Part shown: positions 1,942-29,811 of the stretch, in pieces
How positions within the stretch are numbered: position 1 is the first letter of the stretch
Layout: each line of letters opens with the position of its first letter
Assembly: GCA_938045545.1 (NCBI GenBank)
Contig: CALIBN010000021.1
Span: forward strand, 1 to 29,947
Reading direction: 5' to 3'
From: an uncultured archaeon
Lineage (GTDB): Archaea > Thermoproteota > EX4484-205 > JAAOZP01
DNA: 29,947 bases
Notes under the pieces: model-generated
What the model was told of the DNA's origin: nothing
Databases searched by the model: none
What the model saw: the letters and a program-made list of their open reading frames with translations, nothing else
Made by a program: the position numbers and the translations under genes

Positions 1942-2174
1942 TCCTAATCCCCGGTGATGAGTAGTTTAAAGATTATTTAAGCCTTTCAATTAATACTAGA
2001 TTAAGGATGGCTGCGGCAAATAGCGCGCGCAACGAGGCCGTGAAGCATGCTGTTGAAATGCATTTCGATACTGTTTTCGAGGACGAAGTTTTGCAGGAAG
2101 AGGGCTTTAAAGACGACGGTGTAATGCTTGAACTTTCTTTAAACAGATTCAAAGTGGGAAAAAGCATTACGGTA

Positions 2175-2492
2175 TTATTCTCTTCTCTCCACGATTATCT
2201 TGCATTTTGTTGCTATTGCTGCGATCACTCCTAGAGCAGCCATCCACGGCGCCAAGATGGCGCCTATCACTCCCACTGTAGCAGGAATCTCAAGCAGCGT
2301 CTCATCCTTCTCACTCTTCACAATGATTCTTGTAACATTCCCTTCGTGAATAAGGTGTTTAATCGTTTTCACGAGGTCCTCGGAAGAGACGGAGTATTCC
2401 TCTCTGGAAACCTTACCCACAGGGGAGCCGCATGCGGAACAGAAGGCAGCGTCATCAGGCAGCTCCCTACCGCACCTCTGACAATGCTTCAA
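2175..2492 (-). CDS. Zinc-ribbon + DUF4342 domain protein
   Basis: CQRCG...AAFCSACG zinc ribbon followed by LVKTIKHLIHEGNVTRIIVK...LLEIPATVGVIGAILAPW, the DUF4342 pattern. Probable TTG start at 2492 after a purine-rich GGGGGTGGAG. Confidence 0.85.
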   Translation of the reverse strand: MKHCQRCGRELPDDAAFCSACGSPVGKVSREEYSVSSEDLVKTIKHLIHEGNVTRIIVKSEKDETLLEIPATVGVIGAILAPWMAALGVIAAIATKCKIIVERRE

Positions 2493-2587
2493 ACGCTCTC
2501 CACCCCCACAATATTTTAGCAGTAAGTTTTTAAACGTTTTCATCAAACTATATTAATTAACGTCCCATTCTTTTTATCAAGAGATGA

Positions 2588-2743
2588 AGCGCATTTGCAC
2601 AAGAATACGGTTAATGGAGGGCAACGTCTGCAGCAGGAGTAGCCATAGCCCCACCAGCCTTAATATTTGCAATCCTAGTCCACAAGCATATTATAAAGGG
2701 ATTGACCCTTGCTACGTGGGCTGAAAATGCAGCACCGATTTGA
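2588..2743 (+). pseudogene. C-terminal remnant of a carbohydrate ABC transporter permease (MalG-like)
   Basis: Reads SAFAQEYG*WRATSAAGVAIAPPALIFAILVHKHIIKGLTL, matching the last TM helix and QKYIxxGLT-type tail of MalG-type permeases. Internal stop, no start codon. Confidence 0.65.
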
Positions 2744-2829
2744 CTGTCGCACTGGAGACTGTAGGCTTTAAGACGCTCCTGTGACGTAAGCGAAAAGATT
2801 TAAACCTCTAAAAACCTTCTTGCTCACCC

Positions 2830-3866
2830 TTGGCAAAATCTCCACTGGCGCCCATTATAGTCCTATTCTTCCTGTCGCCAATCGTAGGCGAGCTTCTCTC
2901 AGGCTCCAGCCCGACTGCACAATTCTTTCAACCCGTGGTCCTGTTCCTGCTAGCTGAGCTTTACGGGAGCGGCGCATCTTGGCTAGAGAGGCTGTAAGAA
3001 GACGGGGCGGAGGTTGGCCTTCGGTCCTCTTGCTCGGCGCAGCATACGGCATACTGGAGGAGGGAGTGTCGTGAAAAGCTTCTTCGACCCCAACTGGCCT
3101 GACCTAGGAGTTCTAGGGGCATATGGAAGATGGGTTGGCGTAAAGGTCTGGGCAGAGTGGTTAACAATCTACCACTCGATATACAGCATAACGATCCCCA
3201 TATCCTCGTCGAACTCCTTTTCCCCTCGTTGCGCGCGCAAGCACTGCATACCTGGGCAGAAAGCGAGTGGCCTTCTTCCTGACGCTGATCTCCATCGTCG
3301 TGATCCTTTGCCACTTTTACCTTAACCCGTATCCCGTGACCCTGTGGCAAATGCTCGGCTGCCTCCTAGCCATGACTATTCTCACGCTTTGCGCTAAGAG
3401 GCTCAGAGGCTTAAGCCAGGGGTGGCGAAAGCCGCGTGAGGAACAGGTGGCTTTGGCTGCTTGGAGCATCAGGGGGTTTCACGTATTTCTTCCTCGTATT
3501 TGGCCTTCTGCCCACGATCGGCGTCCCAGTTCTACTCACGATCTCCATAGGCATTGCATCAACCGGCCTCATTGCGGTAATCGTGCTCAGGCTCTCGAAG
3601 AGGGATATGGGCGAGCTGAACGCGCTTGGGCTGCATCCGGCTTCCTAACCCTTCTGATAATCCTCGACCTCATTTTGGAATTTTCCAATCCAACGCCCGA
3701 GGACTTCAGAGGGCAGACAATTGTCTGGGTTGTCTTCACACCCTTTTTAATACTGCTCGGCCGCAAGACCAGCCGCAGGGAGGCGAGGAGGCGGCGGAAC
3801 AGTCAGGCTGAGCAGTTTCCCCCGCCCCGCCTCAAGTCTCGCGCGATCTTTGCAGAGAAGGATTAA
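2830..3866 (+). pseudogene. Frameshifted conserved polytopic membrane protein
   Basis: Stitching frames gives MAKSPLAPIIVLFFLSPIVGELLSGSSP..LYGSGA/LAREAVRRRGGGWPSVLLLGAAYGILEEG/VVKSFFDPNWPDLGVLGAYGRW../LVELLFP../WLWLLGASGGFTYFFLVF.., one coherent hydrophobic protein broken by at least 5 frameshifts. Confidence 0.8.
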
Positions 3867-4050
3867 GTTCAGCACACACTATCCTCATTGAAGTTTACCG
3901 CCGCATAAAGCCGTGGTCTCCAAACATAATCACATCATAGTCCCATCAGTATCCGTGACTGAACCAGGCGCATGCGGATCATTCTTAAACATGTTCTTGT
4001 AGGCCGGCTTAAACCAACGAGGCCTCGACGCTAAAGAATTTTAACTATCG

Positions 4051-4242
4051 TTAGCCGCTGCACGCACAGCCACCTGAAGAACCGCCGGAATCTGAGACCA
4101 AGCGGTTCTTAACGTAGGCATCTATCCAGCAGTCTCGACACATTCTAACCACCCTGTTAAAATCCTTATGCATAGCGAAGTAAAGACTGACACCTCCTTT
4201 TCCGCAGATCTCACATTTTAAATCATCCTGATTTTGAGCCAT
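4051..4242 (-). CDS. Small Cys-rich putative zinc-binding protein
   Basis: 63 aa with CEIC and CRDC pairs and C-terminal GGCACSG. TATA-like TTTATTA about 25 nt upstream of the ATG. Confidence 0.7.
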   Translation of the reverse strand: MAQNQDDLKCEICGKGGVSLYFAMHKDFNRVVRMCRDCWIDAYVKNRLVSDSGGSSGGCACSG

Positions 4243-4404
4243 GCTGGCTCCCGTACCGGGAGACGCTAATAAACCTTACTATCAACCTAAAAGTGCGCAC
4301 ATCCAGAATGCGGAAAAACAGCCCAACTGGATGCCTTTCAACCATGTTACGCATGCCTATATGCATCTGCCAAATAAGTTCCACCATCGTCCTAGCTCTT
4401 GGTA

Positions 4405-4893
4405 TTAATATGGTTTCCTCGCCTTGGTCCTCCCCGGTTTTAACCTTTTTTCTCTTCGAAGCGGGAATATTGCTTCCGTGCCCAGATAGGAGTTTAAATC
4501 CTCCGAGGTAAGCAATAGGAATACGATGCTGGTGCTCAGCACCCCGGTGACCAGATTCACCAAATGAGGCGCCGCCCTTATGGCAGCGGTTTCAGAATCA
4601 ACCTTTTTAGACAAGAAGTCTGAAAGAAGCGGGGTTAAACCGTAAAGGGAGAAGAATATCCCCAGGAGGGCGAACACGGTGAAAACAAGCAGGGAAACAG
4701 AGAACGTGAGCACTCCCCGCAGCCTGTAAAACATTACGATGAAAATAATGCAGAGGAGTATGAGCAGCAGGTCCTCAATCATCCACTGTTTTAAGAAATA
4801 CGCTTTCAGAATCCAGTAGACAAGCCAGGAAACCATTATAATCACGATGAATATGACTACCCGCCGGAGCTCCTTGGGTTTCTGTTGGGACAA
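4405..4893 (-). CDS. Hypothetical membrane protein (about 4 TM helices)
   Basis: 162-aa ORF with four long hydrophobic segments. AT-rich promoter-like sequence at about 4915-4930. Confidence 0.7.
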   Translation of the reverse strand: MSQQKPKELRRVVIFIVIIMVSWLVYWILKAYFLKQWMIEDLLLILLCIIFIVMFYRLRGVLTFSVSLLVFTVFALLGIFFSLYGLTPLLSDFLSKKVDSETAAIRAAPHLVNLVTGVLSTSIVFLLLTSEDLNSYLGTEAIFPLRREKRLKPGRTKARKPY

Positions 4894-5041
4894 CCCCTGT
4901 AATGGGAGGAATGTTTAAAATAAAAAGTTTTCTTTAATTTGAAGAAAACATCCGAAGGAGGCTTAACCTTGTTAGCATGCTCCCCACCGGTTTAGATGCA
5001 TCGCGGGTAAAAGAAAATTTAATATTTAATCGAAAACACGG

Positions 5042-6184
5042 ATGGATGCGATGAAAAAAAGAGCGTTGGACGCTTTAAGCCTGAGGCGCGTGAAAAGCCT
5101 TCTTCTCTCCGGAGCCCCGACTACCGATGAAAAGCTTGTGGAGAGGCTAACAGGAGTTAAAGTCTACGGGGTAAATCAGAGGGAGAAGATGAAAGCAGTT
5201 TTCGAAGCTCTCGATGTAGACCTGTTCTACCAGCTCGGAGTAAATTTAAACGTCGTGTGGAGCGACAGGAAGCCTAGGCTCATGGAAGGGTTTTTCGAGG
5301 AATTGAAGGAGGACTTTCCGTTTACGGATGCTTTCCATGTAGCCTATAAAAATCTCAGGCTGAGGAGGACAGAGACGGCCTCCCAGCTTTGGGTTGTAGA
5401 GAGGCCTTTCAAAAACTATGGAGAGCTTTTAAGCTACCTGAGGAATTATGATCCTCGTGAGGATGAGCCGAGGTCAACGAGTGAAATAGCCGACGAATAT
5501 AGGAGGGTTTTTCAGGAGTATCAGGAATTGCTTGGCGAAACAACGTTGTACGCCGGAGAATTCTATTTAACGCTCTTCACGTATTTAGATATTCACATCG
5601 GCCTGCAAATGATAGCTAGGCTGGGCCGTCAAAACCCAGAAATCCTGGACGAGCTCGCCTCCAAGTATGCTCAGGTGGCTAGAAAGCACGTTGAAGCCTG
5701 GTCTAACACCGGGATAAAAGTTTTCGTTTCGCACGACGACGTAGCCTGGAGAGGCGGCTTGTTCTTCCCAGCGGAATGGTATAGGAAGCACATTCTAAAA
5801 TGGTGGAAATACATTTGGAAGCCTGTTAAAGACAAGGGTATAAAACTGATCTATGTTTCAGATGGAGACTACAGGGGTCTGATGGGAGACCTGGTTGAAA
5901 CAGGGGTTGACGGCTTCCACGTGGAATGGGATCCCATGTTTTCGAGAAGAGACGTTGAAAATATTGTGGAGAGATACGGTGGTGACAAGATATTTCTCCT
6001 CCACCCAAGCTATGAGGTTTTGACCCGTGGAAGCATTTCTGAAGTGGAGGAGGAGGCCAGATGGTTCGCCGCCCTATCGAGGAAATACCCTTCGATATTC
6101 TTTGCGGGAAACCCTCCTGGCAATCCTGTAAACGAGGAAGTCTTCCTTAGAACATGGTTTTCCGAAAGACACCGTGAAAACTAG
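5042..6184 (+). CDS. Uroporphyrinogen decarboxylase (URO-D)/MtaA-CmuA superfamily protein
   Basis: C-terminal motifs FVSHDDVAWRGGLFF..WYRKHI..IYVSDGD..DLVETGVDGFH..YGGDK typical of the URO-D-like TIM barrel. Confidence 0.8.
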   Translation: MDAMKKRALDALSLRRVKSLLLSGAPTTDEKLVERLTGVKVYGVNQREKMKAVFEALDVDLFYQLGVNLNVVWSDRKPRLMEGFFEELKEDFPFTDAFHVAYKNLRLRRTETASQLWVVERPFKNYGELLSYLRNYDPREDEPRSTSEIADEYRRVFQEYQELLGETTLYAGEFYLTLFTYLDIHIGLQMIARLGRQNPEILDELASKYAQVARKHVEAWSNTGIKVFVSHDDVAWRGGLFFPAEWYRKHILKWWKYIWKPVKDKGIKLIYVSDGDYRGLMGDLVETGVDGFHVEWDPMFSRRDVENIVERYGGDKIFLLHPSYEVLTRGSISEVEEEARWFAALSRKYPSIFFAGNPPGNPVNEEVFLRTWFSERHREN

Positions 6185-6250
6185 GTTCTTCCAATACACG
6201 GCGAAGAGTATTAAAAAGCGGTCCTCGAGCAGTGTTACTTTTTAATTTAA

Positions 6251-6463
6251 TTATTCAAGCACTGAGAAACAGCCCGAGGGCGAACAGGAGTAGCGACAAG
6301 ATTCCCAGCGCCCCGCACTCCACCCCCTTCCAGAGGACGCCCGAGTGAGTCGGGTATTCGGCTGTAAACAGTTGCCAAAAATAATGGCGGAGGATAGGAA
6401 GGGCAGAAACGAGAAAACAGCATAAAGTAACGCTTTCAACGTTTTCCGAAAATCCACCGTCAT
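6251..6463 (-). other. Possible small or degenerate membrane-protein ORF
   Basis: ATG preceded by GTGGGTAGAG and one hydrophobic N-terminal helix. The C-terminal half looks out of frame. Confidence 0.3.
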
Positions 6464-6583
6464 ACTCTACCCACTATCTTCTAAAAAGCCGATTACAAAC
6501 CTCCGTTAACGTTTACGTTGAAAACCGGCTCCCTGCCAGAATAAACTTTTAAGCCCGGGTCCAGGTTACAACATTGAGGAGAA

Positions 6584-6925
6584 ATGTGGAAGATTATAGA
6601 TTCTAGCGAGATTCCTTTCACGCCTTATCCCAAGGGGGTTTCAAGCATAAAGAGGATTGTCGAGAAGGAGAAGATTGGAGCCCAGCGGATAAGCGGGTTC
6701 GGCCTAATCCAGGTTCCCCCCGGGGGAGCCTTCGGCCCACACGAGCATCCTGAAAGAGAGGAGATATACTATGTTCTCTCCGGTTCCGGGATGCTCATCG
6801 TCGGCGGCGAGGAGATCCCTGCCAGAGAGGGGTTGGCCCTATATGTTTCAGGAGAGGAGTCTCACGGGCTGAGGAACCAAGGTGATAAGCAGCTCATCGT
6901 AGTATTCGTAACCGTCTACAAGTAG
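6584..6925 (+). CDS. Cupin domain protein
   Basis: Cupin metal motifs GPHEHPEREEIYYVLSGSG and GEESHGLRN. GAGGAG upstream of the ATG. Confidence 0.92.
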   Translation: MWKIIDSSEIPFTPYPKGVSSIKRIVEKEKIGAQRISGFGLIQVPPGGAFGPHEHPEREEIYYVLSGSGMLIVGGEEIPAREGLALYVSGEESHGLRNQGDKQLIVVFVTVYK

Positions 6926-6945
6926 TGGGATACGGGTGTATTTGG

Positions 6946-7971
6946 ATGAGGGCACTAGTATACCGTGATTTCAACGATTTCAGGTGGGAGGAGGTTGAGA
7001 CACCTGTCATCGGCCCAGAGGAGATTCTGGTTAGAGTGAGGGCTTGCGGCCTCTGTTCAACAGACGTTTGGAAAGCAATGTATCACGAGGCTAAGCCCGG
7101 CATGGTGCTGGGCCACGAGGTCTCCGGAGAGGTTGCGGAGACCGGTTCAAACGTTTCAAGTTTGACGGTTGGCGACAGGGTGGCGGTGTTCCACCGCGCT
7201 GAGTGCGGAGCATGCTATTATTGTAATCATGGTGATGAAACGCTTTGCAACGAGTACCGTCAACAATCGATTTTCCCAGGCGCTTTCGCAGAGTATATTC
7301 GCGTCGCCCCGAGGCTTGTTGGAAAATCAGTAGTCCGAATCCCGGATGAGATGACTTACGAGGAGGCAACGATGATAGAGCCTACAGCGTGCTGCGTTAG
7401 AGCAGCCGCTAAGATCGGAATAGCCCCGGGCGACAGCGTTCTGATCGTCGGAGACGGCCCAATGGCTCTGCTGAACGCTCAAGTCTCTAAGACAGCCGGA
7501 GCCCTAGTTATTCTCAGCGGCCACCATGATCATCGTGTCGAGACAGCTGTAAAACTGGGTGCGGACTACGCGTTCAACTCGAACAAGACTGACCTTAGGA
7601 GGAACGTATTGGAGTTAACAGGGGGACGTGGAGCCGATGTTGTAATCGTAGCCGTCTCCTCCACAGAAGCTGTTCAAGAATCCTTGAAGCTGGTTCGCGA
7701 AGGAGGCAAGATATGCGTTTTCGGAGACTTCAGAGATGTCCCCCAGCCTAGCCTAAGCCTAGACCTTAAACCGGTGGTTCACAGCGGCGTAGGCCTGCTG
7801 GGAAGCTGGGGCTGCTCAACCAAGGATTACCATGCTGCCTTCAACCTGATAAAAACCGGGAGGGTAAGGGTTAGGGATATGATTACCCACAGGTTCCCAT
7901 TAGACAAGTTCATGGATGCGCTGAAAGTGTTCCTTGGCAAGAAGTGTATTAAAATCATCCTCCACCCTTAA
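6946..7971 (+). CDS. Zn-dependent medium-chain dehydrogenase (sorbitol/threonine dehydrogenase-like)
   Basis: CGLCSTD catalytic Zn site, GHEVSG, structural Zn CGACYYC..C, Rossmann-like GDGPMA. Probably co-transcribed with the cupin gene. Confidence 0.93.
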   Translation: MRALVYRDFNDFRWEEVETPVIGPEEILVRVRACGLCSTDVWKAMYHEAKPGMVLGHEVSGEVAETGSNVSSLTVGDRVAVFHRAECGACYYCNHGDETLCNEYRQQSIFPGAFAEYIRVAPRLVGKSVVRIPDEMTYEEATMIEPTACCVRAAAKIGIAPGDSVLIVGDGPMALLNAQVSKTAGALVILSGHHDHRVETAVKLGADYAFNSNKTDLRRNVLELTGGRGADVVIVAVSSTEAVQESLKLVREGGKICVFGDFRDVPQPSLSLDLKPVVHSGVGLLGSWGCSTKDYHAAFNLIKTGRVRVRDMITHRFPLDKFMDALKVFLGKKCIKIILHP

Positions 7972-8054
7972 CTGGTCTCCCGTTTCCAGGGACAGCGTAT
8001 GCCTACCAGACGGGCGTAAAAAGTTTTTAAGCGAAGCAGAACGGGAAAAGAGGA

Positions 8055-9473
8055 ATGAGCGGGACGTATAGTTTTCCCCACCGAGAGCTCTACGCACCCG
8101 GACACTTCGGAAACTGGTATGAGGTTGCCGGACGCTTCGAAATGAGGGACGTGCTGGCTGAAGCCAAGTGGTGGGGGTTCAACTGGTATGGCGACTGGTT
8201 TGACACAGTGAACCTGACGGAGAAGCCGCACCTCTCCCCCGTGGCTTCCCATTGTTGGCTGACCAAGGCCCTATGGGAAAACAAGAAAGCCCATTTTCAA
8301 GAGGCGCGAAGGCTCGGATTTAAGCTTGACCTTTTAGTTACTCCAAACCATGTTTACTTAGACCAGGTTTCAAAAGAGACTATGGCTAAGGATCTTCCTG
8401 AGAGACAAGCGGAGAAACGTGGGATCCGCTTCTTCGGCCAATTGGTATGTCCATCTAACCCTAAGGCTAGAAGCATAATTCTGAAAAACTATGACGAGTT
8501 GTTCAGGGAACTGGCGGAGAGCAGTATACGCCTGGACGCGGTTACATACGCTGCCTACGATTTCGGCGGATGCGCGTGTCGAAAATGCAACCCTTGGATC
8601 GTGACCTTCGCAGAATTATGCAAAGAAATACACGGAGTTGCTGCAGAATACTTCCCGGGTGTTAAAATGAGGTTTTGCTGCTGGTGGTGGAACCCTAAAG
8701 ACCATAATCTTTTCGCCGAATGGGCGGATAAGCATATGCCTGGGGAGGTTGAAAGCATGGCTCTGTGGATAAAATACGGCGAGGATAAGCCGGGGACCGT
8801 GCCACCCGGCAGGCTTCCCGAAGAGTGTAGAGAAGCATACTTCATCCACATCGGGTATTCAGACAACAGGGCTGACAACGATGTCTACGGGCAATGGGGA
8901 CCCGTGGTTGCTCCAAGCAGAATAACTAGGACGCTTGAGACTCTGAAAAGCGTCCACGGCGAGGGTTTCATGGCTTATTCGGAAGGGGTTTTCGACGATG
9001 TTAACAAGGCGATCCTAGGCGGTTTGAGCAGCGGCAGGTTTTCAAGTGTGCAAGAGGTTCTCGAAGAATATGCTAGAAGATATTTCGAAGCAGAGGGCCG
9101 GGCAGTAAGAGAATGGGCGGAATGGATCTGTCAATGGGGAGAGCCGAGCATGGTTAACCTGGGGAAGGCGAGACGAGTCTTCAACCTGCTGGCTTCTAAG
9201 GCCCCTGACACGTGGAGGCTGAAACAATTCGCATCGAAAATGAGGCTGTTCGAGTTGAACAGGCAGCTGGAGGATAAGAAAGCATGGACACCTAGGCTCT
9301 TAACAATGGTTGAGGCATTCCTAAGGGAGCGCGAGGCCCTGCGGAGGAAGATTTACGGGCTTCCCCCGCTTGAGGACCAGGTTTTCAAAGCGATAGTAGG
9401 CGAGCCCCGCTGGCTCAGGGAGCTTATTGCTTCAACCACGCTTCCAACAGTTCTTCCCGGAAAGCTAGCGTGA
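8055..9473 (+). CDS. Hypothetical protein, putative glycoside-hydrolase-like TIM barrel
   Basis: 472 aa, Trp/aromatic rich. Motifs HFGNWY..WWGFNWYGDWFD, YDFGGCACRKCNPW, GFMAYSEGVFDDVNK. GH assignment is by resemblance only. Confidence 0.6.
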   Translation: MSGTYSFPHRELYAPGHFGNWYEVAGRFEMRDVLAEAKWWGFNWYGDWFDTVNLTEKPHLSPVASHCWLTKALWENKKAHFQEARRLGFKLDLLVTPNHVYLDQVSKETMAKDLPERQAEKRGIRFFGQLVCPSNPKARSIILKNYDELFRELAESSIRLDAVTYAAYDFGGCACRKCNPWIVTFAELCKEIHGVAAEYFPGVKMRFCCWWWNPKDHNLFAEWADKHMPGEVESMALWIKYGEDKPGTVPPGRLPEECREAYFIHIGYSDNRADNDVYGQWGPVVAPSRITRTLETLKSVHGEGFMAYSEGVFDDVNKAILGGLSSGRFSSVQEVLEEYARRYFEAEGRAVREWAEWICQWGEPSMVNLGKARRVFNLLASKAPDTWRLKQFASKMRLFELNRQLEDKKAWTPRLLTMVEAFLREREALRRKIYGLPPLEDQVFKAIVGEPRWLRELIASTTLPTVLPGKLA

Positions 9474-9548
9474 CGAGAAGAGGATTCAACCCGGCGTTTA
9501 AAAAATATAAAGCGCTGTCCTCTCGTAAGGTGGACAGAGGACCAGTTC

Positions 9549-10241
9549 ATGAAAGTTAAAGCAGTATTGTTTGACTTGGGTGAAACATTGGTAAGAATAT
9601 GGACTCCTGAAATCGTTTTTAAAAGAATTTTAGATTCGCTGGGGATTGACAGGCCTCTTGAAGAAATAAGGGAGGCGTTAGCAAGGACTGATGAGCAGTT
9701 CAAATCTCCTAGTTACCGCTCGCTCTATGGGAAAACCCCTTATCAAGAGTACTGGGGCATGTGGAGTTCAACCGTTCTTAAAAATCTCGGAATCGCAGGG
9801 TATGGGAGGCTTGCCGGAGAGATAGTGGCACGGTGGTTTGAACACGCGGATTGCGAAGCCTATCCTGATGCTGAGGAAACACTGGTTAAGCTGAGGAGTA
9901 TGGGTTTAAAGACGGGACTTGTTTCAGCAGGCTATGAGGAAGACGTCTACGCTATCCTGGAAAAATCAGGTCTTAAGAAAGAGCTTTTCGACGTTATAGT
10001 TGGGGCTGACACTATTGGAATGGCAAAGCCTCATCCGGAGGCCTTCAACCATGCTCTTGAAAAACTCAGGGTTAAGCCTGAAGAAGCCCTGTTCATCGGG
10101 GACAAGACTGATGACGACTACAGGGGGGCGGAGGGAGTGGGCATAACTCCCATACTTATTCGGCGGGAAGCCGGTGGAACAAGCAAGGTTCCCGGCTTAA
10201 GAACCGTCACGAGCCTTAGAGAAATCTTCCAATTCATATAA
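9549..10241 (+). CDS. HAD-superfamily hydrolase
   Basis: Motif I VLFDLGETL, motif III KPHP, motif IV FIGDKTDDD. Confidence 0.92.
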   Translation: MKVKAVLFDLGETLVRIWTPEIVFKRILDSLGIDRPLEEIREALARTDEQFKSPSYRSLYGKTPYQEYWGMWSSTVLKNLGIAGYGRLAGEIVARWFEHADCEAYPDAEETLVKLRSMGLKTGLVSAGYEEDVYAILEKSGLKKELFDVIVGADTIGMAKPHPEAFNHALEKLRVKPEEALFIGDKTDDDYRGAEGVGITPILIRREAGGTSKVPGLRTVTSLREIFQFI

Positions 10242-10384
10242 AGCGTAGCACGTATAGCTAAAAAGTCTACCACCTGGTATTCTTAGGAAAGAATCCGCGC
10301 GAGGCTTTCGGCCTATACCAGCATGCACCATTCTACACCAAATAATTTTGCATAATTTTGCAATTTAGAATTCGCCTTTTATAG

Positions 10385-10786
10385 TCATTCTATCACCTTG
10401 ACTCGTATCGCAAGCCTCTTGGCTTTCTCAGCCTGCTCCTTGTCTAACGTGTAGAGCGTGGCGTCCCTGCTTTCTGCCAGAGCCAGGAAAAGGGCATCGT
10501 ACACTGATAAGTTTTCAGAGCACGCGATCTCAAAAGCCCTTTCTAAAAGCGTTTTTTCATCCACAGTTTCTAAGCCTGATTCCGCCAAATCTAAAAGGGC
10601 CTTCGCCTTAGTCTTAGCACTCTCCCCGCTTATACGGCCTCTGGCATATGTTTTCCAAACAGCGTTCAAAGACTCCTTGATCGCCATGTCAACCGTAACT
10701 GCATGCATAAGCAGGTTAGCCAGTTTTTCCCAACCCGGTTCCTTTAGAACGTAGGCAGCTATAACCGTGGTATCAATGGCTTTCAC
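10385..10786 (-). CDS. vapC: PIN-domain toxin, VapC family
   Basis: IDTTV N-terminal motif and SVYDALFLALA..LYTLD. Overlaps the upstream small antitoxin gene. Confidence 0.9.
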   Translation of the reverse strand: MKAIDTTVIAAYVLKEPGWEKLANLLMHAVTVDMAIKESLNAVWKTYARGRISGESAKTKAKALLDLAESGLETVDEKTLLERAFEIACSENLSVYDALFLALAESRDATLYTLDKEQAEKAKRLAIRVKVIE

Positions 10787-11003
10787 GATCCTCTCTCACC
10801 AGCTTCACTGCGAACCCTTTCGGAACCCCCTCAGTATTCTCTATTTCTCGCGTGATTCTCTCTATTGTCTTCTTGGCTTCCACCTCTCTTACTTTCGCCT
10901 CTATGAAACGCCTTATTTCCTCCGGCCAGTTCACCTCCTTCTTTAGAGTTTTCATCTTCTTCTTGAGCTCGCGGGGAACCTTAACCGCTATAATTTCACT
11001 CAT
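10773..11003 (-). CDS. vapB: RHH/CopG-type antitoxin, VapB family
   Basis: 76 aa, IIAVKVPRELKKKM...VNWPEEIRRFIE...LVREDRES. Overlaps the vapC start. Confidence 0.85.
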   Translation of the reverse strand: MSEIIAVKVPRELKKKMKTLKKEVNWPEEIRRFIEAKVREVEAKKTIERITREIENTEGVPKGFAVKLVREDRESH

Positions 11004-11005
11004 GG

Positions 11006-11016
11006 TTACACTGTAA
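11006..11016. promoter_or_regulatory. Putative VapB operator TTACA-C-TGTAA
   Basis: Perfect short inverted repeat between the TATA-like sequence (about 11025-11035) and the vapB start codon. Confidence 0.5.
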
Positions 11017-11174
11017 GTTAAACTTTTATTTAAACTTTAAAAACGACAAGAGCAATGCTTCTAAAGGCAAATAACATCGTTTAGAGCAAATATTAAGCGC
11101 CGCCGAGGCGGGAAAGATCTCGAACAGATATGTTTCAAAGAGCTCTCAATAAGCGATTTGCAACAGAGGCTTAT

Positions 11175-11584
11175 TCACTTTATCATTATGACCTCGTTCT
11201 TCAGGTCGGCGAAATGCTTGTCTCCTGTAACAACTTTAGCATTAGATTTTCGGGCTGTTGCCAGGATGATTGAATCGGCTAACCCCCAGTCCTTACTTTG
11301 TCTTTTCTCTCGATGTCTATCTCGCCTGAGAGTTCGGCGATGTCGCGCGATAAGTCTATGATCTTCGTGATGGTTCCAATGAACTCCAGCTTGGTTCTCC
11401 TGCCTTCAATAGTCTCCACTCCTCTTCCAACTTCTTTAAGCGGCTTCCTGCTTAGCTCTGCAATAACTATTGTCGGGGTGGCTGAATTCTCGTCCTCAAT
11501 GTAATGCTTCGCCTCCTCGCCAGGCTTTGAGCCCCTGAAATACTCAATCCGCGCGTAAGCGTCGATAACGTATTTATAGCTCAT
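11175..11584 (-). pseudogene. vapC: Frameshifted PIN-domain toxin (VapC)
   Basis: ORF 11279-11584 (YVIDAYARIEYF...) continues after a frameshift near 11295 as KDWGLADSIILATARKSNAKVVTGDKHFADLKNEVIMIK*, ending at 11175. Confidence 0.85.
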
Positions 11585-11772
11585 GGAACTCCCTCTTCTT
11601 CCTCCTTGAAGCGGGACAGCTTAGGGTTTGAACCAAACATGGGGGTGGGAATCTCTATCTTTTCGGCTATGAGCTTTTGTAAAACTTCATCATAGCTTTT
11701 CGCGGACAACTTCTTCTTTAAAACATCCAAGAGCTGCCGCGTTTTCCTACTAACCTGAATAGTAGTAGCCAT
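11581..11772 (-). CDS. vapB: Antitoxin (archaeal VapB-type)
   Basis: 63 aa MATTIQVSRKTRQLLDVLKKKLSAKSYDEVL. ATGA overlap with the PIN gene. Confidence 0.82.
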   Translation of the reverse strand: MATTIQVSRKTRQLLDVLKKKLSAKSYDEVLQKLIAEKIEIPTPMFGSNPKLSRFKEEEEGVP

Positions 11773-11774
11773 AA

Positions 11775-11792
11775 CTATAGTTATAACTATAG
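11775..11792. promoter_or_regulatory. Perfect 18-bp palindrome CTATAGTTATAACTATAG, putative antitoxin operator
   Basis: Lies between the BRE/TATA (GGTAAAAATATAAAT on the minus strand) and the antitoxin ATG. Confidence 0.7.
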
Positions 11793-11826
11793 CTCATTTA
11801 TATTTTTACCCGCACCGGCACGAGCG

Positions 11827-12432
11827 CTATCTGATGATTTTTACTTCGACATTGTCGATATAGTATGTCATGCGAGTCTCCCAGCGTACTGAGATTCCTA
11901 AGGCGACCCATATCTCTTCACTTGAGTCTGTATTTATGCTTGTTGTGTAAACGTATCTTTTCCAGCCCTCAACTTCATTAGCGTTTCCAATTACGATGAA
12001 ACATTCTTCAGTTCTTGGTTTTCGTGTACCAGCATAAGCGCATATTACAGCCCTCGTGTTAGCTTGGCTTTCATGGTCACTATACAAATCGAAGGAGATG
12101 CTAACATTGATTCGAGTATCTCTTGGCACGGTTATTTTTCTCTCCACCCATATGGTTCCGTCGTCCTGCCGCCCGTCAATGAAGAACCTTAATGAATATC
12201 GCCCAGAGCTGGCGACTTCAGTTGAACGCGTTATGTTCCATTCGACGAATTGACCAGGATTGTTTGGATCAAGCGGCACGTCCGCACCTACAGCCCATTC
12301 GCCGAATCCGTTTTCAAAGTCTTCTTCCATTATTTGGGGAGCGGCAAGGAGATGAAAATACAATGCGGTTAAGGCGGCGATAGCAATTATTACCGAAAAG
12401 AACGATGCCGTTTTCATGTTCAAATCATCCAC
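11827..12432 (-). CDS. Secreted or membrane-anchored hypothetical protein, predicted beta-sandwich
   Basis: N-terminal hydrophobic helix, then EEDFENGFGEW...YYIDNVEV, a pattern common in jelly-roll/CBM-like domains. Confidence 0.75.
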   Translation of the reverse strand: MDDLNMKTASFFSVIIAIAALTALYFHLLAAPQIMEEDFENGFGEWAVGADVPLDPNNPGQFVEWNITRSTEVASSGRYSLRFFIDGRQDDGTIWVERKITVPRDTRINVSISFDLYSDHESQANTRAVICAYAGTRKPRTEECFIVIGNANEVEGWKRYVYTTSINTDSSEEIWVALGISVRWETRMTYYIDNVEVKIIR

Positions 12433-12735
12433 CCCTTTCCTCGTTCACATAACATTTTTCCTTAACTATAATGCTACACTTTAGAACAAATGTGTAAAGG
12501 CCCGTCCAGAAAATAGAACAGTCAATACGGCGCCACTCGGTATCCAGTTCACCCCCTCGCAAAAGCGCTTATTCATTTAGGCGCTTTACAAAACCCGGGG
12601 TCTTTCCAAGAGATATTCTGATCATTGGGAAGCAGCCTCGTCACGGTTCCGCGATTCATGACTTAATCGGGTGAGGCTGCATGCCCTACCAGAGAACATA
12701 ACCCATTGGATGCTTATCGCTTCTCTTCCATGCCC

Positions 12736-16412: not shown

Positions 16413-16415
16413 TGC

Positions 16416-17646: not shown

Positions 17647-17799
17647 TGGGCGCGAAAAAGCATGGGCAACAGCTTCACGCCCGTATTCTAGGGGCCTCAG
17701 GCAGACAAAGCCCACGAGCCTTCGTAAAGCCTTAGAGAATTCTTAATCCTGATGCTGAGGCCGGTGAAACAGGCGCGCGCTAAAAGCCTGTATAAGGGA

Positions 17800-19755: not shown

Positions 19756-20910
19756 CTATAGCTTTAAGTATCCATCGGGAGCCATGCTGGTTGCCAGCAT
19801 CACCATATTTATGTCCAGATGCTCCCTCCAGCTTCCACTCCCCCTATTTTTAAGCCAAAACCTCTCGATTTTACCGGCAAGGAAAACATACTGAAGGAGG
19901 CTGTTGACTAATGATAGTGAACGTTCGCCGAAGAGATCCGGCTTTTGCTGGACAAGTCCTTTAAGCCTCTCCAAGGATTTTAAACCGATCGATAACCCAA
20001 GCTCTCTGAAAGCAAGCCTAAGGTTAGCGGGAAGCTCTAGTTCGTCTCCCAAAGCGTAAGCCTCCAAACTCATTTCTGAAGACTCTAATAAATCGTCGAC
20101 GAGACTGGGGTCGAAGTATTTGTTGGGAATCAGTTGCGCAGCTTTATATGCGTTGCAAAGAAGCTCGCCGATTCCTAGAGGATCCGAGGTAGCCCAGTCT
20201 ATTTCTTCACACATACCGGCCATATCGTTTATCTCGGAACCGAGGTCAGGCCAATTCGCATCCCTAGGAGCTGTTGATTGAAGGTCAACATAAGTTATAA
20301 GCCCGTCCAAGGGGTCATGCTGCCCCATGGCTTGGACGAGAGGACGGGAAAGGTCTATGCTCATCTTCCAGTACATCCGCTTCACGCCGGAGGGCGTGAA
20401 ATAGACGAAGGAGGCGTGCGCGGTCTTCGCGAGCTCCATCGCCCAAAGGTTGTAAATACGGTCACCTGTTGTTTTGCACACCCTATTCAAAGCATGCATC
20501 CATTTAGTCAGATAATGGTAATACTGCCCGTCCCTCCCCCATTCCAAGACCTCGTCGAAAGGTTCGTTAGGCTTTCTCTCGCTTAGCTCCTTGCCTATCC
20601 TCAATCCACCTATAGTAGGGTGCTTCCTGCCTTCCTCCTCGCTGAGCCCGCTTATCCAGCCCTTTCTTTCATCGTCTCCGCGATGGCGGCCAAGCGTGTG
20701 ATGAACTCGATCGACTAGGTTTAAGGCCAGGTTCTTGAACTCGGCTTCGCCGGTTTGACGGTAAAGCTCGATGAAGTTGCAGACAGCAAACGCATCCGTC
20801 CATAAATAGCGGCGCTGCGGCTTATCCGAGAGAAGCCCGGTTTGACGAGCAAACTCTTCCATGATTTCTTTAGCTTTGAAAAGCGGATTTTCCGCCATAT
20901 TTCCTATCAT
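19756..20910 (-). CDS. Conserved hypothetical protein, possibly alpha/alpha-toroid fold
   Basis: 384 aa with distinctive blocks RRYLWTDAFAVCNF, GGLRIGK, RDGQYYHYLTKWMHAL, MYWKMSIDLSRPLV, RLAFRELGL, EHLDINMVMLAT. Confidence 0.8.
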   Translation of the reverse strand: MIGNMAENPLFKAKEIMEEFARQTGLLSDKPQRRYLWTDAFAVCNFIELYRQTGEAEFKNLALNLVDRVHHTLGRHRGDDERKGWISGLSEEEGRKHPTIGGLRIGKELSERKPNEPFDEVLEWGRDGQYYHYLTKWMHALNRVCKTTGDRIYNLWAMELAKTAHASFVYFTPSGVKRMYWKMSIDLSRPLVQAMGQHDPLDGLITYVDLQSTAPRDANWPDLGSEINDMAGMCEEIDWATSDPLGIGELLCNAYKAAQLIPNKYFDPSLVDDLLESSEMSLEAYALGDELELPANLRLAFRELGLSIGLKSLERLKGLVQQKPDLFGERSLSLVNSLLQYVFLAGKIERFWLKNRGSGSWREHLDINMVMLATSMAPDGYLKL

Positions 20911-21119
20911 CTTCTTTTAGCTCGTCTTTAAATTCGTTTCGCGAAGCCCGTGACGTCATTTCTGAAATAAGCCCAATCATAAGTATAAAAGCATACAACA
21001 TGTGTTTTCGAACTCCAGCCAATGGCGCGCTCTATATAACTATATTGGGGGCCGAGGGAGCTTGTCACAAAGGTTTTTAGCGCTTGCTAATAATGTTTCA
21101 ATCGAGTAGAACGTCACGG

Positions 21120-21318
21120 CGAGTCTTGAAGGCGTTCACGTTGAGTTGAAGAATGTTAATACGGGACTTGATTCGTGGAGAAGACTCTTGAGACTTTAGT
21201 GGTCATGATGCTTCCCGAGGAGGAGGTCGCGAGGAAGAGTTGAAGGAAATAGAGGAGGCGGAGGCAGAGAAAGGGAGGAATACGTTACCCTCAAGGAATT
21301 AATGAAGCACGCGCTAAA
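21120..21318 (+). pseudogene. Degenerate small acidic antitoxin (RelB-like archaeal type)
   Basis: Stitched frames: SLEGVHVELKNVNTGLDS/VEKTLETLVVMMLPEEEV/EEELKEIEEAEAE/GEEYVTLKELMK. The EYVTLxEL tail is typical of archaeal RelE-associated antitoxins. Start codon lost. Confidence 0.55.
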
Positions 21319-21366
21319 CAGAGTGGCTTAAAATTTATAAGATTTCTGTGCTGGCTGGTATGGGAA

Positions 21367-23114: not shown

Positions 23115-23282
23115 TTTAAGCAAGAGCGTTACTCTTAACCTGCCTGCTAGGATTCCCACGTCTTCGGAGTAGAAGGTTCCCTTCCCGCCTGTTTTCAAAA
23201 GCTCCCACGCGTCCCCCCTGCACCCGACCAGGCCCCTATGGTTCTTAGTCTCGATGACGAGGATGTCTCGGGTTGACACGCC
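23115..23282 (-). pseudogene. Internal fragment of a NERD (nuclease-related domain) gene
   Basis: VSTRDILVIETKNHRGLVGCRGDAW...FYSEDV/NPSRQVKSNA matches the NERD xVIETKNxxG...W...NPxxQ pattern. No N-terminus. Confidence 0.7.
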
Positions 23283-23422
23283 AGCGCGCGCATCGTTATC
23301 CTAAGACTTATCCTGACACTAGAATACTACAATGCTGCGACAGGGTCTTCATGTCTTCAGTTATCGCATCCACGTAGCGCACACAGCGCGTTAGTATCTC
23401 AGAAACGGGCACTTCCCCGCGC

Positions 23423-24064
23423 TTACAGCGGTGGCGGTGGAGGTGGTTGAAGCTTTGTTTCTCTTTTACGCATGACCATGCCGGTTAAGCAGAATGCTCC
23501 TGAGAGTAAGGCGAGCCAAAATTGGATGGTGAACCGGGACGTTATGCTAATTTTTACAAAGCCGTCAACCTGCATCAGCGGATAGAGGTTCAGGGTTAAG
23601 TATTGGCTTGAGTAAGGCATCAGCGCCTCCCTCAGGTCTGGAAGCACTTGAGCTATAAAAGGGACGAAGCGTGTTATTAAGGATGTTATTGCGATAATGC
23701 TAATTAGGATTGTCACTCCGAACCCTATGGGCATCGTTAAAGGCCTAAGGTTAAGAAGCCTTCGCGACCATGTTCTCCCGTGTAGCAGTGAGCCAGCGAT
23801 TATCGTGGCAGACCCGAGGATGGCGAGTAGTCTTTCGGATACGAACAGCGCAATCATAAGGGGCGATGGCTTAATTATCTGCGAACCCAGAAGCTCTGCC
23901 TGGAAGCCGAAGGGTGAGAAACCCACGTATAGAACGGGTTTAGAAACTTCACCTCCAACCAGCTCCCACCAAGCACCGCCAGTCACGGATATTATTAGAA
24001 ACAGCACCCCGCCGATTAAGTAGAGTATTCTAAACTTCTCCAAATCAATCACCCGGAGAACCAA
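23423..24064 (-). CDS. Hypothetical membrane protein (about 4 TM, poly-Pro tail)
   Basis: Hydrophobic segments and a C-terminal poly-proline run. Overlaps the upstream gene. Confidence 0.75.
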   Translation of the reverse strand: MVLRVIDLEKFRILYLIGGVLFLIISVTGGAWWELVGGEVSKPVLYVGFSPFGFQAELLGSQIIKPSPLMIALFVSERLLAILGSATIIAGSLLHGRTWSRRLLNLRPLTMPIGFGVTILISIIAITSLITRFVPFIAQVLPDLREALMPYSSQYLTLNLYPLMQVDGFVKISITSRFTIQFWLALLSGAFCLTGMVMRKRETKLQPPPPPPL

Positions 24065-26222: not shown

Positions 26223-26289
26223 TGATACTTAGCGCGAGCGCGCGCTTGTTCGAACGCATACTGTTTAACTAATGCAGCACTACTAGGGG

Positions 26290-28790
26290 GTTTTGGCAAC
26301 AAATTCTTCTTCATCTTCCAAATGAGTTCCTAATATTTAAGTGTATATCTGCGAAGGCAACCTGAGAAAGCGATTCTGCTCTGTTCCCAAGCGTATTTAT
26401 ACAATCTACCTCCAGGCCGAATTCCACTGCCTTTGGCACTATTTGAATTCCGTCCAGTGTAGCGATTAGCCCATGTACTGCCTTCGCCTCGTCCTTGAAA
26501 GGTGAAAGGTGGATAGAAAGCTGCTAAAGTATCAAGAGCATCGGCGAGAAAATCGAGAATGCGTACTAAGCCTTCAAGTCCTTCTGCCCAGTTCTCAATA
26601 GCCTCCTGTACCTCTAGTGCCTCCCACGCTTCGTCCTGCACAGAATCTACGATCCCCCTATACTCATAGAAATCCCAAAACATTCCCTGCTCTCAATCAT
26701 TATAGTTTTCTCCTTGAGGCACACAGCTCTTAGCGCTCTCTAATGCTGCGTATAGACCTATCCTCGCTTTGATAATGTAATAAGGCTTCAAGACATTTCA
26801 ACAAAACCCTTTTCAACGACCTCCTTTGACAATTCAGGTCTGCCGATATACTCGTTGAGCATAACGGTGAGGAGCGGCTTGTAAGGTCCGTCCGGAATCT
26901 GTTTTAAAACCATATTAACAAGCTCGAGTGTGAGCTCTTCTTCAATATACGCTTCTAGAAGATTAAGTCCTTTTCCGACACCTTCTTTTGCAGCCGTGAA
27001 TTTACCCGATGTTAAAATATCGTAAGCTAACTCTAGTACTGCAGCTGCTAACTCCTCTTTGAAGGATACTTTCGTAGCATTCTTAAAAGCTCTAATTGTT
27101 CGACTATTTTATGAACGTCTTGTATAATTTCATAGAAATCCTCAGCTGCACTTTCAGCTTCACGTTTAGCATATTCGTTAAAGTTTGCATAGCCTGAAAG
27201 AGCAACATAGAAACGTTTGATGGCTACCATTTCTCGCCATGTGACTCCACCTGCTTCCACTTCATCTAACCACTTCTCAGCTTTAGCCGCAAAATCTTTG
27301 AAAGGACTCCCAGTCAGACCGCTTTCCCCCAAGTCTTTTAGTGAACCTCTTGCCTTTGCAAGTTCCATTTCTCTTTCTCCAGTTTTAACTCTTAATGTGA
27401 GATTCAACCCTTCTGCTGGAACCTCAATCCGACGTCTCTCCTCGTATCAAAGAGTTTCATAGCTATATACTGGGTTACCATGTGCATGAGTGATTACATA
27501 GTAATTGCCAATAGGCATTCTATCAATATCGATTAAGCCATTTTTCGGTTTCACTTGCGACTTAACACATATCTTGCGATCGCCCATTTCTCTATAGAAG
27601 TATACCCAAACATCATCGGCAGGATTTCCTTCCTCATCGTAAACATTAGCCATAAGTCTTGCTGTTTGCTGATAAGGAACATAAGAAAAACTGCATTCTA
27701 TCCACTCACCAGAACGACTAGGATCTTTAGCTTTAATCGTTACTCTTACAGTATAATTACGTGGATCTCCGGTATTTTAAGCTGACTTCTCCATACAAAG
27801 AAGGTATTGACTATCCACAATTTGACCGGCTTTTATATTAATATCTTCTTGTCGGAAAGGCCAAGAAATTCTTGTTCCGAAAGTTTCGAAGCCAACCATT
27901 GCTTTCGGATTTATATTAGCATCAAAGTATCCTTTTAAATGGTGTAGCTTTTCAGGCTGACTATAAAGCGCTTCAACACCTTTATCTTTAAGAAATAGTT
28001 CGATAGCCGATAAAGTTGCAGCAGAACAATCTGGAGCATACCAGAAGGTTCCATATACACTTTTTGCTGGAGAATCCGTAATAATCACAATAACTTTTCG
28101 TGCATCTTTTCTAAAATCAAATTCACTTATCACCAACATTAATTGATCATAGCTTGCAGCAGGATCCCACCATTCTCCTCCAGAAAGCTGCACATGATCT
28201 AACCATTGATGAATCTCTTCAGCCTCCATAACACCACGAAAAGGCATTGTGAATGCCCAATCAGTATATGATTCAGCAGGAGAATTCTCTACAGTACTTC
28301 CTTCATATTTTACAATTGATATATGAAAATCGACATGCTCAGAAAGAAGTCTATTAACAAATTCATGAAGCTCAGAATGTATTCCAGGCATTTCATCTTT
28401 CATAGAACCAGTCATGTCAACTAGAAAGACGATATCCAATTTTTCCCTCGTCACAGACCTTTCCCAAAACCATCTCCATAGAATTGATAATACGAGTTCG
28501 CTTCACCAAAAGTAATTGATAGCTCTTGAATAACATTTTCCTTAGAGTCAAGAAGAGTTTCAGAGAGATTGGAATCCTTTAAAGACAACCCTGCCACCAA
28601 ATTCCCCGCCGAGTCTTTCATTGAAACCGATGCCCAGAGAAGGTTTTTACCAGCACTCTGATCCCAAAGTGAGAAATTGTTTACAATTTAATTGTGCTCT
28701 TTTTTAAACCGGACGTAAGAGAAGGAAGGAGGTCGCTGCAACTGCAACAACTACACCTATTATGGCGACAACCATTACGCTTTTTGTCAT
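26290..28790 (-). pseudogene. Fragmented large membrane-anchored vWA-domain protein
   Basis: ATG 28790 MTKSVMVVAIIGVVVAVAATSFLLLRPV*, then KDSAGNLVAGLSLKD, vWA core LDIVFLVDMTGSM..VIVIITDSP (27777-28454), and further same-strand fragments 27447-27653, 27048-27407 and 26330-26683 separated by frameshifts or stops. Confidence 0.75.
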
Positions 28791-29025
28791 TATAATTCAC
28801 TTATAGCCGGCATATAAAAAGTTTTTCTCCGTACATCATTTATCCAAGATTGTTATAAAATGACACTGTACTAAAACTACAAGTTTAATCTTCAAAGAAA
28901 GATCCCCGGATTGTTTGAGAGAAGTTGAAAAGCTTAGCGAGATTGCTAGGAATCTGACAGATAAACGAGCCGGCGCGTGCAAGAGTTTAGGGAAAACTTA
29001 AAAGCCCTGAGGAACTGGGTTGCTT

Positions 29026-29571
29026 ATGGATGTTCATGAAGCGATAGAAAGCAGAAGAGCCTATCGTGCTATCGAGCCGATAGAAGTAACTGATGGGCTG
29101 ATCAAGGATCTGGCTTATAATGCTTCTCTAGCTCCCTCCTGTTATAATAACCAGCCTTGGAGGTTTGTATTTGTGAAGAGCCGTGAAAAGCTTATGGAAT
29201 TATATGGTGCGCTGTCGAGTGGAAACAGTTGGGCTAAAACAGCTTCTTTAATCGTTGCTGTTTACTCCAGGAAAGATTACGACTGCATTGTTAAGGGTCG
29301 TGAATATTATCTTTTCGATACAGGTATGGCAGTAGCCATGATGATTCTGAGAGCGACGGAGCTTGGATTAGTGGCCCATCCCATTGCAGGATACGACCAA
29401 GATAAGGCTAAGAAGGCTCTGGAGATACCGGAGGAGGATATTCTGATTACCCTAATCATAATTGGGAAGCATTCTAATGAAGCCTTCAGCAGTCTTTCAA
29501 GCAAGCAGATGGAAGCAGAGTTGAAAAGACCTCCGAGAAAGGAGTTTGAAGAAATCGCAAGGATCATTTAA
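29026..29571 (+). CDS. Nitroreductase family protein
   Basis: AIESRRAYR, APSCYNNQPWRFVFV, DTGMAVAMMILRATELGLVAHPIAG. Confidence 0.93.
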   Translation: MDVHEAIESRRAYRAIEPIEVTDGLIKDLAYNASLAPSCYNNQPWRFVFVKSREKLMELYGALSSGNSWAKTASLIVAVYSRKDYDCIVKGREYYLFDTGMAVAMMILRATELGLVAHPIAGYDQDKAKKALEIPEEDILITLIIIGKHSNEAFSSLSSKQMEAELKRPPRKEFEEIARII

Positions 29572-29811
29572 GCGAGGAAACTGAATAATATCCAGCTTAA
29601 TAGTTATGTTCACGCGTAGTCTTCTCCTCTTTCCTGACTTTTGACGAGCGCAATAGGGGTCTATGCCTGCTCTAACGGGAAACCCTGAACTTAGCGTGCG
29701 CTATACTGATAAGGCCTTAAACTAATTGAATATTAAAGCCTAAAAGTCTTAGCAAGTTATTTCCCACAGGGTAAAGCTTAAAAATAGCGAGGGAATAGTT
29801 AAAGTAATCGC

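Follow-up and report, generated by a model that had tools for sequence, protein, structure and literature searches.

A palindrome of eight alternating G and C bases, GCGCGCGC, recurs between unrelated gene modules in a 29,947-bp stretch of DNA from an uncultured archaeon of the Thermoproteota (contig CALIBN010000021.1 of assembly GCA_938045545.1), raising the question of whether it marks a site at which modules are acquired and exchanged, as an initial annotation of this locus proposed, or is a trace of the events that brought the modules together. This stretch, hereafter the window, is the entire contig C21 of the metagenome bin G000 (2.03 Mb, 51 contigs, 92% complete, 48% G+C). With a probability of roughly one in two, we read the motif as a scar that is left by homology-independent end joining and later re-used as microhomology, and not as a signal.

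The window contains five exact copies of the motif against 0.25 expected, a count that none of 100 dinucleotide-preserving shuffles reached, and 14 matches with at most one mismatch (four of them overlapping, at 26232-26238) against 5.8 expected, a count reached by a single shuffle out of 100. Genes of G000 were called using a codon log-odds score trained on long open reading frames (ORFs), which yielded 1,895 calls and 84% coding DNA; all five exact copies in the window and the four one-mismatch copies listed by the initial annotation fall outside these crude gene calls. The eight main positions given there hold, with exact copies at 2023, 17773, 23284 and 26238 and one-mismatch copies at 21025, 21307, 28973 and 29694. 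Four shorter variants (14988, 16362, 19650 and 24698) are 2-4 positions off the motif, and their membership is unsupported. The annotation further counted two copies in coding-derived sequence, and here the picture is mixed: the copy at 20414 is indeed within a gene call, the one at 3231 is an insertion of the motif in a pseudogene, and an unlisted one-mismatch copy at 22852 also lies within a gene call.

The predicted intergenic enrichment extends to the whole bin. The genome carries 38 copies of GCGCGCGC, compared with 22, 14 and 4.7 expected under order 0, 1 and 3, respectively, which makes it the most over-represented palindromic 8-mer of G000. By the same crude gene call, 35 of the 38 copies are non-coding, in a genome that is 15.8% non-coding (p = 5e-25), and three are inside gene calls; all other G/C-only 8-mers combined are 17% non-coding (1,568 of 9,160). 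The motif is also the top non-coding 8-mer (70 two-strand counts against 4-7 expected; z = 24.7), followed by TAGCGCGC, CGCGCGCT, TAGCGTGC and GCGTGCGC. Copies are rare in spacers shorter than 100 bp (0.07 per kb) compared with longer non-coding stretches (0.18-0.32 per kb), and the median non-coding stretch is 400 bp long with a copy versus 99 bp without.

Strictly alternating G/C runs of 6, 7, 8, 9 and 10 nt occur 68, 34, 32, 4 and 2 times, respectively, in non-coding DNA of G000, whereas purine-pyrimidine alternation in general is only weakly enriched outside genes (non-coding share of 16-31% for runs of 6-13 nt versus 16% of the genome). The motif is therefore a word whose length is set, and not a tract free to extend. 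The A/T flanks that had been noticed in the window are present genome-wide and consist of T and then A outward from the run, a preference that is stronger in the related genome G008; it is the sole flank preference, and in neither G000 nor G008 is there any base preference more than 2 nt to either side of the 8-mer, that is, there are no arms beyond 12 bp.

The history of individual copies was traced primarily by comparison with G006, the closest relative compared, for which ~515 kb, about a quarter of the genome, was rebuilt; 10 of the 38 exact copies of G000 are covered by this sample and 28 lie outside it. At six of the 10 covered copies, homology between the two genomes ends, two are located in unaligned DNA near the end of a block, and two are spanned by the alignment. 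The suggestion that breakpoints between relatives fall on the motif is thus borne out, and it is also supported by the alignment ends at large: for 9 of the 103 internal ends, a copy lies no more than 5 bp away in one genome or the other, compared with about 1% of random non-coding positions (p = 3e-6), and for three this copy is exact, compared with 0.2% expected (p = 0.002). A run of at least 6 nt or a copy with at most one transition lies at the border of 8 of the 36 collinear gaps of at least 100 bp, and 9 of the 85 indels of at least 4 bp in 332 kb of G000-G006 alignment involve such runs. When the 300-bp flanks of the 38 copies are compared with the rest of the genome, several paralogous matches stop at the motif.

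Several of these joints show what was there before. On contig C8 of G000, 110 bp and 235 bp of unique DNA of G006 are replaced by 8 and 7 nt of alternating G/C, and on contig C4 of G006, fillers of 7-11 nt, one of them a near-full form with TA on the left, stand in place of about 650, about 420 and 37 bp that are present in G000 and include an ORF. In these cases, unique DNA is found at both edges of the deleted stretch, and the motif was absent there before the event. The same is seen among paralogs within G000. In a five-copy family consisting of a small Cys-rich ORF and the following gene (C10 88.5-89.3 kb; C16 33.1-33.7 and 50.6-50.9 kb; C42 14.6-15.1 kb; C18 31.9-32.2 kb), the 8-mer joins the edges of a 165-bp internal deletion in one copy, and two copies are truncated at alternating-G/C runs, at different positions. 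Among the few small insertions of the motif, one is flanked by a 10-bp duplication and others by duplications of about 4-5 bp; still others have none or are accompanied by small deletions.

A case of insertion is seen in the window itself. The exact copy at 3231..3238 replaces a CAG in a membrane-protein pseudogene: both G006 and the more distant relative G010, which was used as an outgroup to polarise this site, have CAG and open frames of 365 and 327 aa across it, so that the motif is derived in G000, where the frame is broken. A duplication of a GCGC target at this site is ruled out because the ancestral site contains no GCGC. In G000, the gene in question (2633-4349), which encodes a polytopic membrane protein, is broken into several frames, owing to the motif insertion together with one or more additional deletions of 1 bp. 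Taken together, these cases show that the motif arises de novo at joints.

The left half of the window (1-16,452) is collinear with a single G006 contig, at about 89-97% identity, whereas the right half has only scattered G006 matches spread over four contigs. The window could also be compared with the related assemblies X1, X2, X3 and X5 (X3 from another study), the contigs of which were produced by another assembler (Logan); window parts without cover in X2, X3 and X5 were excluded from the comparison. At 2023..2030, upstream of a GH3 gene, the exact copy is a deletion scar. Five genomes (G002, G007, G010, G009 and G008) have about 100-440 bp of extra DNA in this place, and G000 and G006 have the motif instead. 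The extra DNA is the 5' part of a gene, fullest in G002, the 3' part of which survives at about 2031-2170. At another point of this decaying gene, G010 carries a separate joint of alternating G/C. Around this copy, there are three 1-bp indels relative to G006 within 40 bp. By eye, the gene remnant at 2031-2170 resembles an acetyltransferase.

The exact copy at 17773..17780 is located at a homology break between convergent AbiEi-like and GH123 genes. The G006 match is 95% identical up to 17781, where G006 carries GCACGTGC, and unrelated DNA follows; the site is spanned by contigs of X1, X3 and X5. This is one of two sites (the other is on C8) at which both genomes share a flank and a copy of the motif and differ in the DNA beyond.

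Two copies, GCGCGCTC at 21025..21032 and GCACGCGC at 21307..21314, form the left and right borders of an inserted piece of 282 bp. A 41-kb contig of X3 joins 21024 directly to 21307 and so lacks exactly the 282 bp between the two copies. The captured DNA proper (21033..21306, + strand) includes an antitoxin-like gene of which the 5' part is present (about 21128-21306) and the 3' end is cut off; it is 87% identical to a stretch of G006 contig C25, where the frame continues for nine codons to a stop, and the homology of the window ends at the motif, so that the right-hand copy sits exactly at the truncation point. The first 47 bp of the captured piece (21033-21079) have 86% identical copies on contig C39 of G000 and in several relatives, and may be a small conserved element or leader.

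An internal gene fragment of ~160 bp at 23118..23279 (- strand) has its truncation point at the exact copy at 23284..23291. In G010, G007 and G008, the gene runs on to both sides, and the homology of the fragment with these genomes ends 4 bp short of the motif, in agreement with the proposed location of the motif at module junctions and gene truncation points. The X3 assembly lacks 23209-23427. At 26232..26245, two copies, GCGCGA and an exact GCGCGCGC, abut at the end of a module; in G020, a genome of another genus, the homologous module (which starts at 26246 in the window and is about 74% identical) also has an exact copy at this end, with no similarity beyond.

Of the remaining copies, GCGCGTGC at 28973..28980, upstream of a nitroreductase gene, is present as the identical variant in the same place in G006, and GCGTGCGC at 29694..29701 lies in a spacer whose G006 homolog (78% identical) lacks the motif and has 6 bp where the window has 13 bp. 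The GCGTGCGC at 20414..20421, within a gene call, is not part of the feature and is most likely a chance copy. All five sites in the right half are covered by X1 contigs; X1 may be the window's own sample, so this cover shows only that the joints are not the product of one assembler.

Once formed, the copies are not maintained. Of the eight non-coding copies with at most one transition that are spanned by the G006 alignment, only one, at 28973, is identical in G006, and differences amount to 0.39 per motif column versus 0.06 in the flanks, about six-fold, most of them transitions and indels. Non-coding copies with 0, 1, 2 and 3 transitions number 35, 79, 122 and 155, compared with about 2-3, 14-19, 46-59 and 90-116 expected. 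Internal transition variants are 53-57% non-coding, whereas internal transversion variants, at 11-29%, are near background. Among the double-transition variants, those that are palindromic have no clear excess over those that are not, and hence there is no sign of selection for symmetry. The copies of the motif decay by transitions and are not conserved. Chance copies in genes of G000 and G006 vary beyond their flanks as well (0.09 versus 0.025 per column), a hint that CpG transitions may be rapid in general, even though a C5 methyltransferase was not found.

These observations favor deposition of the motif during homology-independent joining because neither a duplication of fixed length nor a donor element nor a target was seen. 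When ends are joined after a break, a deletion or the capture of stray DNA, a constant palindrome of 7-8 alternating G/C bases, in its full form TAGCGCGCGCTA, would be left at the joint. A self-complementary filler could bridge the two ends, either through the addition of short G/C tails to both 3' ends or through the copying of bases from an existing copy of the motif, and alternating G/C would provide the most heat-stable bridge. The variable duplications and deletions in the flanks would be the outcome of variable end processing. Because the motif is palindromic, any two copies are direct repeats in either orientation, and could therefore provide 8-12 bp of microhomology for further deletions and exchanges. 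Such re-use might account for the cassette-like appearance of the right half of the window and for the repeated use of one site, and deletion or exchange between copies by microhomology would explain the sites with a shared flank, the 282-bp difference in X3 and the copy at the corresponding module end in G020 without a dedicated recombinase. The signal picked up by the initial annotation is real and strong and was correctly placed at module borders, and its interpretation is partly supported: the word is written by the joining event and then re-used, and is not a pre-existing address.

The spread of the motif among relatives bears on this reading. In the genus, GCGCGCGC and its reverse, CGCGCGCG, occur at ratios of 38:14 (G000), 38:14 (G006), 145:38, 56:11, 229:88, 63:12 and 339:132, the highest count being that of G016; seven smaller genomes of the genus have 0-3 copies, and genomes of other families show ratios close to 1 or lower. 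Of the 45 runs of at least 7 nt in 400 kb of G008, 34 are non-coding, compared with 10% of the DNA, and a 13-kb island of toxin-antitoxin pairs and gene fragments contains about 25 runs of at least 6 nt. The G008 island (C1 22-38 kb) is of the same kind as that in the window; the runs part CcdA/RHH+PIN and MNT+HepT pairs, a pyrimidine-dimer glycosylase-like ORF, a split MFS (major facilitator superfamily) gene and a beta-helix fragment from one another. The 200 kb of G023, from another family of the same order, contain 22 runs, of which 15 are non-coding, with CG as the prevailing phase, and 200 kb of G003, a member of the same genus with 44% G+C, contain no run of 7 nt or longer. Separately, in the distant genome G033, the only GCGCGCGC is 3 bp from a fragment of a tyrosine-recombinase gene (C8:72154-72295) that matches profile positions 125-168 only, a further truncated gene next to the motif.

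Several points weigh against the end-joining reading. Most joints lack the motif (28 of the 36 gaps and about 90% of the alignment ends). An accessory or mobile agent accounts better than core repair for so uneven a distribution within the genus, and the fact that phase and flanks are particular to each lineage (GC with TA flanks in the genus, CG in G023) also fits inheritance of a sequence. The motif could not be linked to any polymerase, ligase or nuclease; in G000, which is 92% complete, Ku was not found (LigD was not searched for), nor were PolX (palm), reverse transcriptase (RVT_1) or Prim-Pol. The gene calls are crude, and the comparison with G006 covers just a quarter of that genome. 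To our knowledge, repair joints with a constant filler are without precedent. Among the papers listed, searches of open-access text turned up no report of GCGCGCGC or of a constant filler in archaea, nor of highly iterated palindromes in archaea; papers found on end joining with fillers and microhomology dealt with editing in plants or fungi, and the Brockarchaeota paper does not mention palindromes, transposons or repeats. As for the joints without the motif, many show plain microhomology, and no motif is present at the ends of large indels with overlaps of 11-12 bp.

A more far-reaching version of the end-joining reading can be put forward tentatively, as a possibility that we consider somewhat less probable than not. 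An archaeal order without Ku would write TA(GC)4TA into every such joint, by protein-directed tailing or by copying earlier scars, and the word would multiply like a minimal replicator and, by way of 8-12 bp of perfect microhomology, would drive gene loss, the capture of fragments and the formation of toxin-antitoxin "junkyard" islands.

Among the alternatives, a footprint of a mobile element is rather unlikely, although it survives best. A cut-and-paste element with ends reading TAGCGC inward would have been excised and would have left a few end bases behind, imprecise excision causing the flanking deletions, or the 12-bp palindrome itself would be a minimal element moved by a transposase encoded elsewhere. 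A palindrome is the product expected when two inverted ends abut, the duplications beside some insertions (10 bp and about 4-5 bp) could be nibbled remains, and the patchy spread in the genus with lineage-specific flank and phase fits inheritance of a sequence; moreover, metagenome bins often lose multi-copy elements. However, no pair of inverted ends starting with the motif bounds any element in G000, in the 515 kb of G006 or in the 400 kb of G008, with the reservation that bins may lose repeats, and a search for inverted ends starting with GCGC returned only the motif itself and two long inverted duplications. The 300-bp flanks of the 38 copies have no common sequence or element, and the repeats at G000 contig ends are either TnpB elements without the motif or 141-bp assembly overlaps. 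The motif counts of 41 genomes show no correspondence with TnpB, DDE_Tnp_1, DDE_3, Prim-Pol or tyrosine recombinase; the IS630-type DDE_3 was found in none of the 17 genomes of the genus, and the Y1 transposase (Y1_Tnp, PF01797) was not found in G000. Finally, neither TA nor any other target is present at the ancestral site of 3231 or at the edges of the deletions.

The explanation closest to the initial proposal, a dedicated site for site-specific recombination where a recombinase encoded elsewhere would capture, excise and shuffle modules, is one that we consider quite improbable. What stands of that proposal is the cassette-like behavior of some copies: in the window, a copy lies at each end of the 282-bp piece, which is absent from X3, where one copy is left; two sites have the same flank and copy in both genomes with different DNA beyond; copies separate islands of toxin-antitoxin and single genes in both the window and G008; and G020 has a copy at the same module end. 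What does not stand is a pre-existing target, given that copies arise where none existed, inside genes (in place of CAG at 3231) and between stretches of unique DNA at deletion edges. In addition, the "cassettes" are often broken pieces of genes, no copy is found within 1.5 kb of the GH123 homologs of three other genomes, binding arms extending past 12 bp are lacking, and the copies are not conserved. Nor is the expectation of a recombinase or of element ends carrying the motif supported. No integrase family was detected among the 36 window ORFs scanned; G000 encodes four paralogous tyrosine recombinases of 404-450 aa (C23:37561, C11:43732, C12:120834 and C13:4417), none of them near an exact copy, and no tyrosine recombinase was found in G016, with its 339 copies, in G012 or in G023.

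Ordinary (GC)n microsatellites or Z-DNA-prone tracts, which would grow by replication slippage in unconstrained DNA and break easily, are very improbable as an explanation: a 2-bp GC step does separate the variant at 16362 from its G006 counterpart, there are runs of 7 and 10 nt, and the copies sit in unconstrained DNA, but the length distribution stops sharply at 8 and does not taper, the enrichment of general purine-pyrimidine alternation is only weak, the events are replacements of CAG or of hundreds of base pairs by a whole unit and not 2-bp steps, and the TA flanks belong to the inserted unit. The Z-DNA alternative raised by the initial annotation, taken as an open-ended tract, fits poorly. 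An operator, terminator aid, insulator or other protein-binding site under selection would agree with the palindromic, non-coding nature of the motif and with its frequent position beside A/T-rich DNA; however, the copies are six times more variable than their flanks, are rare in the short spacers where promoters lie, occur between convergent genes and in pseudogenes, and keep no fixed distance from genes, and the low conservation, the series of decay by transitions and the location in long decayed stretches exclude an operator or other selected site, leaving this explanation extremely unlikely. The chance that the motif is an assembly or sequencing artefact is next to negligible, even though all genomes are metagenome bins and the best match, X1, may be from the same sample as the window, because the same joints are present in contigs of another assembler, orthologous copies in separate genomes differ by point variants, and the fillers vary by transitions and length, unlike a fixed artificial filler.

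If the end-joining reading is correct, each such joint carries a readable tag, so that deletions, captures and rearrangements could be counted and dated from sequence, and the tag would explain the resemblance of variable islands to cassette arrays without an integron. It would also imply a sequence-specific end-joining or insertion activity in archaea without Ku. The density of copies, from 0 to 339 per genome within one genus, offers a handle for finding the responsible gene.

The motif has partial counterparts among known short repeats and repair products. The mobile palindromic GC clusters of fungal mitochondria (for example GC42 of Saccharomyces) are hairpin-forming sequences of 30-60 nt with a two-base target duplication, in an organelle with intron-encoded endonucleases and reverse transcriptases, and no settled mechanism has been assigned to them (Wu and Hao 2015, PMC4478555). 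The archaeal motif resembles GC clusters in that both are short G+C-rich palindromes in A/T-richer non-coding DNA, differ in presence and absence between close relatives, have putative target duplications at some copies only, undergo fast substitution and form abutting or merged copies. Unlike these clusters, the motif is 8-12 bp long and chromosomal, lies mostly at joints of deletions and rearrangements, and occurs in a genome (G000) in which no reverse transcriptase was found.

The fillers left by nonhomologous end joining and by polymerase-theta joining are variable or copied from nearby DNA. The motif is like them in consisting of extra bases exactly at the joint that are absent in the ancestor, with variable small deletions or duplications in the flanks, and unlike them in being one constant palindrome in a genome in which Ku was not found (again, LigD was not searched for). 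The footprints of cut-and-paste elements, such as the P element and Tc1/mariner, are palindromic remnants of both ends with flanking deletions and with duplications beside them. These features recur here, but neither an element nor a matching transposase was found, and the flank duplications range from 0 to 10 bp, which nibbling could shorten.

Integron attC sites are 57-141 nt long and consist of paired imperfect inverted repeats with conserved 7-base ends, and integron cassettes are mostly co-oriented and promoterless. The window is similar in that unrelated small genes and toxin-antitoxin pairs are parted by a recurring palindrome, with one cassette-like case of presence and absence; it differs in having no integrase, no site of 57-141 nt, mixed gene orientation, "cassettes" that are often broken genes, and copies that arise de novo. 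In cyanobacteria, HIP1 (GCGATCGC) is also a G+C-rich palindrome of 8 bp that greatly exceeds its expected count in one lineage; it is common within genes and associated with methyltransferases. In contrast, the archaeal motif is 92% non-coding, and the C5 methylase family PF00145 was detected in 2 of the 17 genomes of the genus, both motif-poor, and not in G000 or other motif-rich genomes. The motif also differs from the repetitive extragenic palindromes and their mosaic elements (REP/BIME) that are accompanied by the RAYT transposase, which are imperfect palindromes of 20-40 nt, in its unit of 8-12 bp and in that PF01797 was not found in G000. None of the known systems compared matches the motif on its defining features.

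A few further features of the window and the bin are worth recording. Rfam and tRNA scans of the window gave no matches; its Pfam content comprises PIN, NTase-HEPN and AbiE pairs amid sugar hydrolases, oxidoreductases and many ORFs without a family. Over the whole of G000, the 8-mers GTTTTCAA, TTGAGAAC and ACAGGGTT and their neighbors reach 350-580 two-strand counts, far over expectation. A multi-copy TnpB (IS200/IS605-like) family is located at several contig ends (C4, over its whole 3.5 kb; C24 15.5-20.8 kb; C29 at about 47 kb). Contig C4 has inverted identical ends, and the copy number of TnpB does not follow the motif across the 41 genomes. Many G000 contig ends overlap the end of another contig by exactly 141 bp (among them C2/C37, C16/C27 and C39/C43), so that the assembly graph could be joined further.

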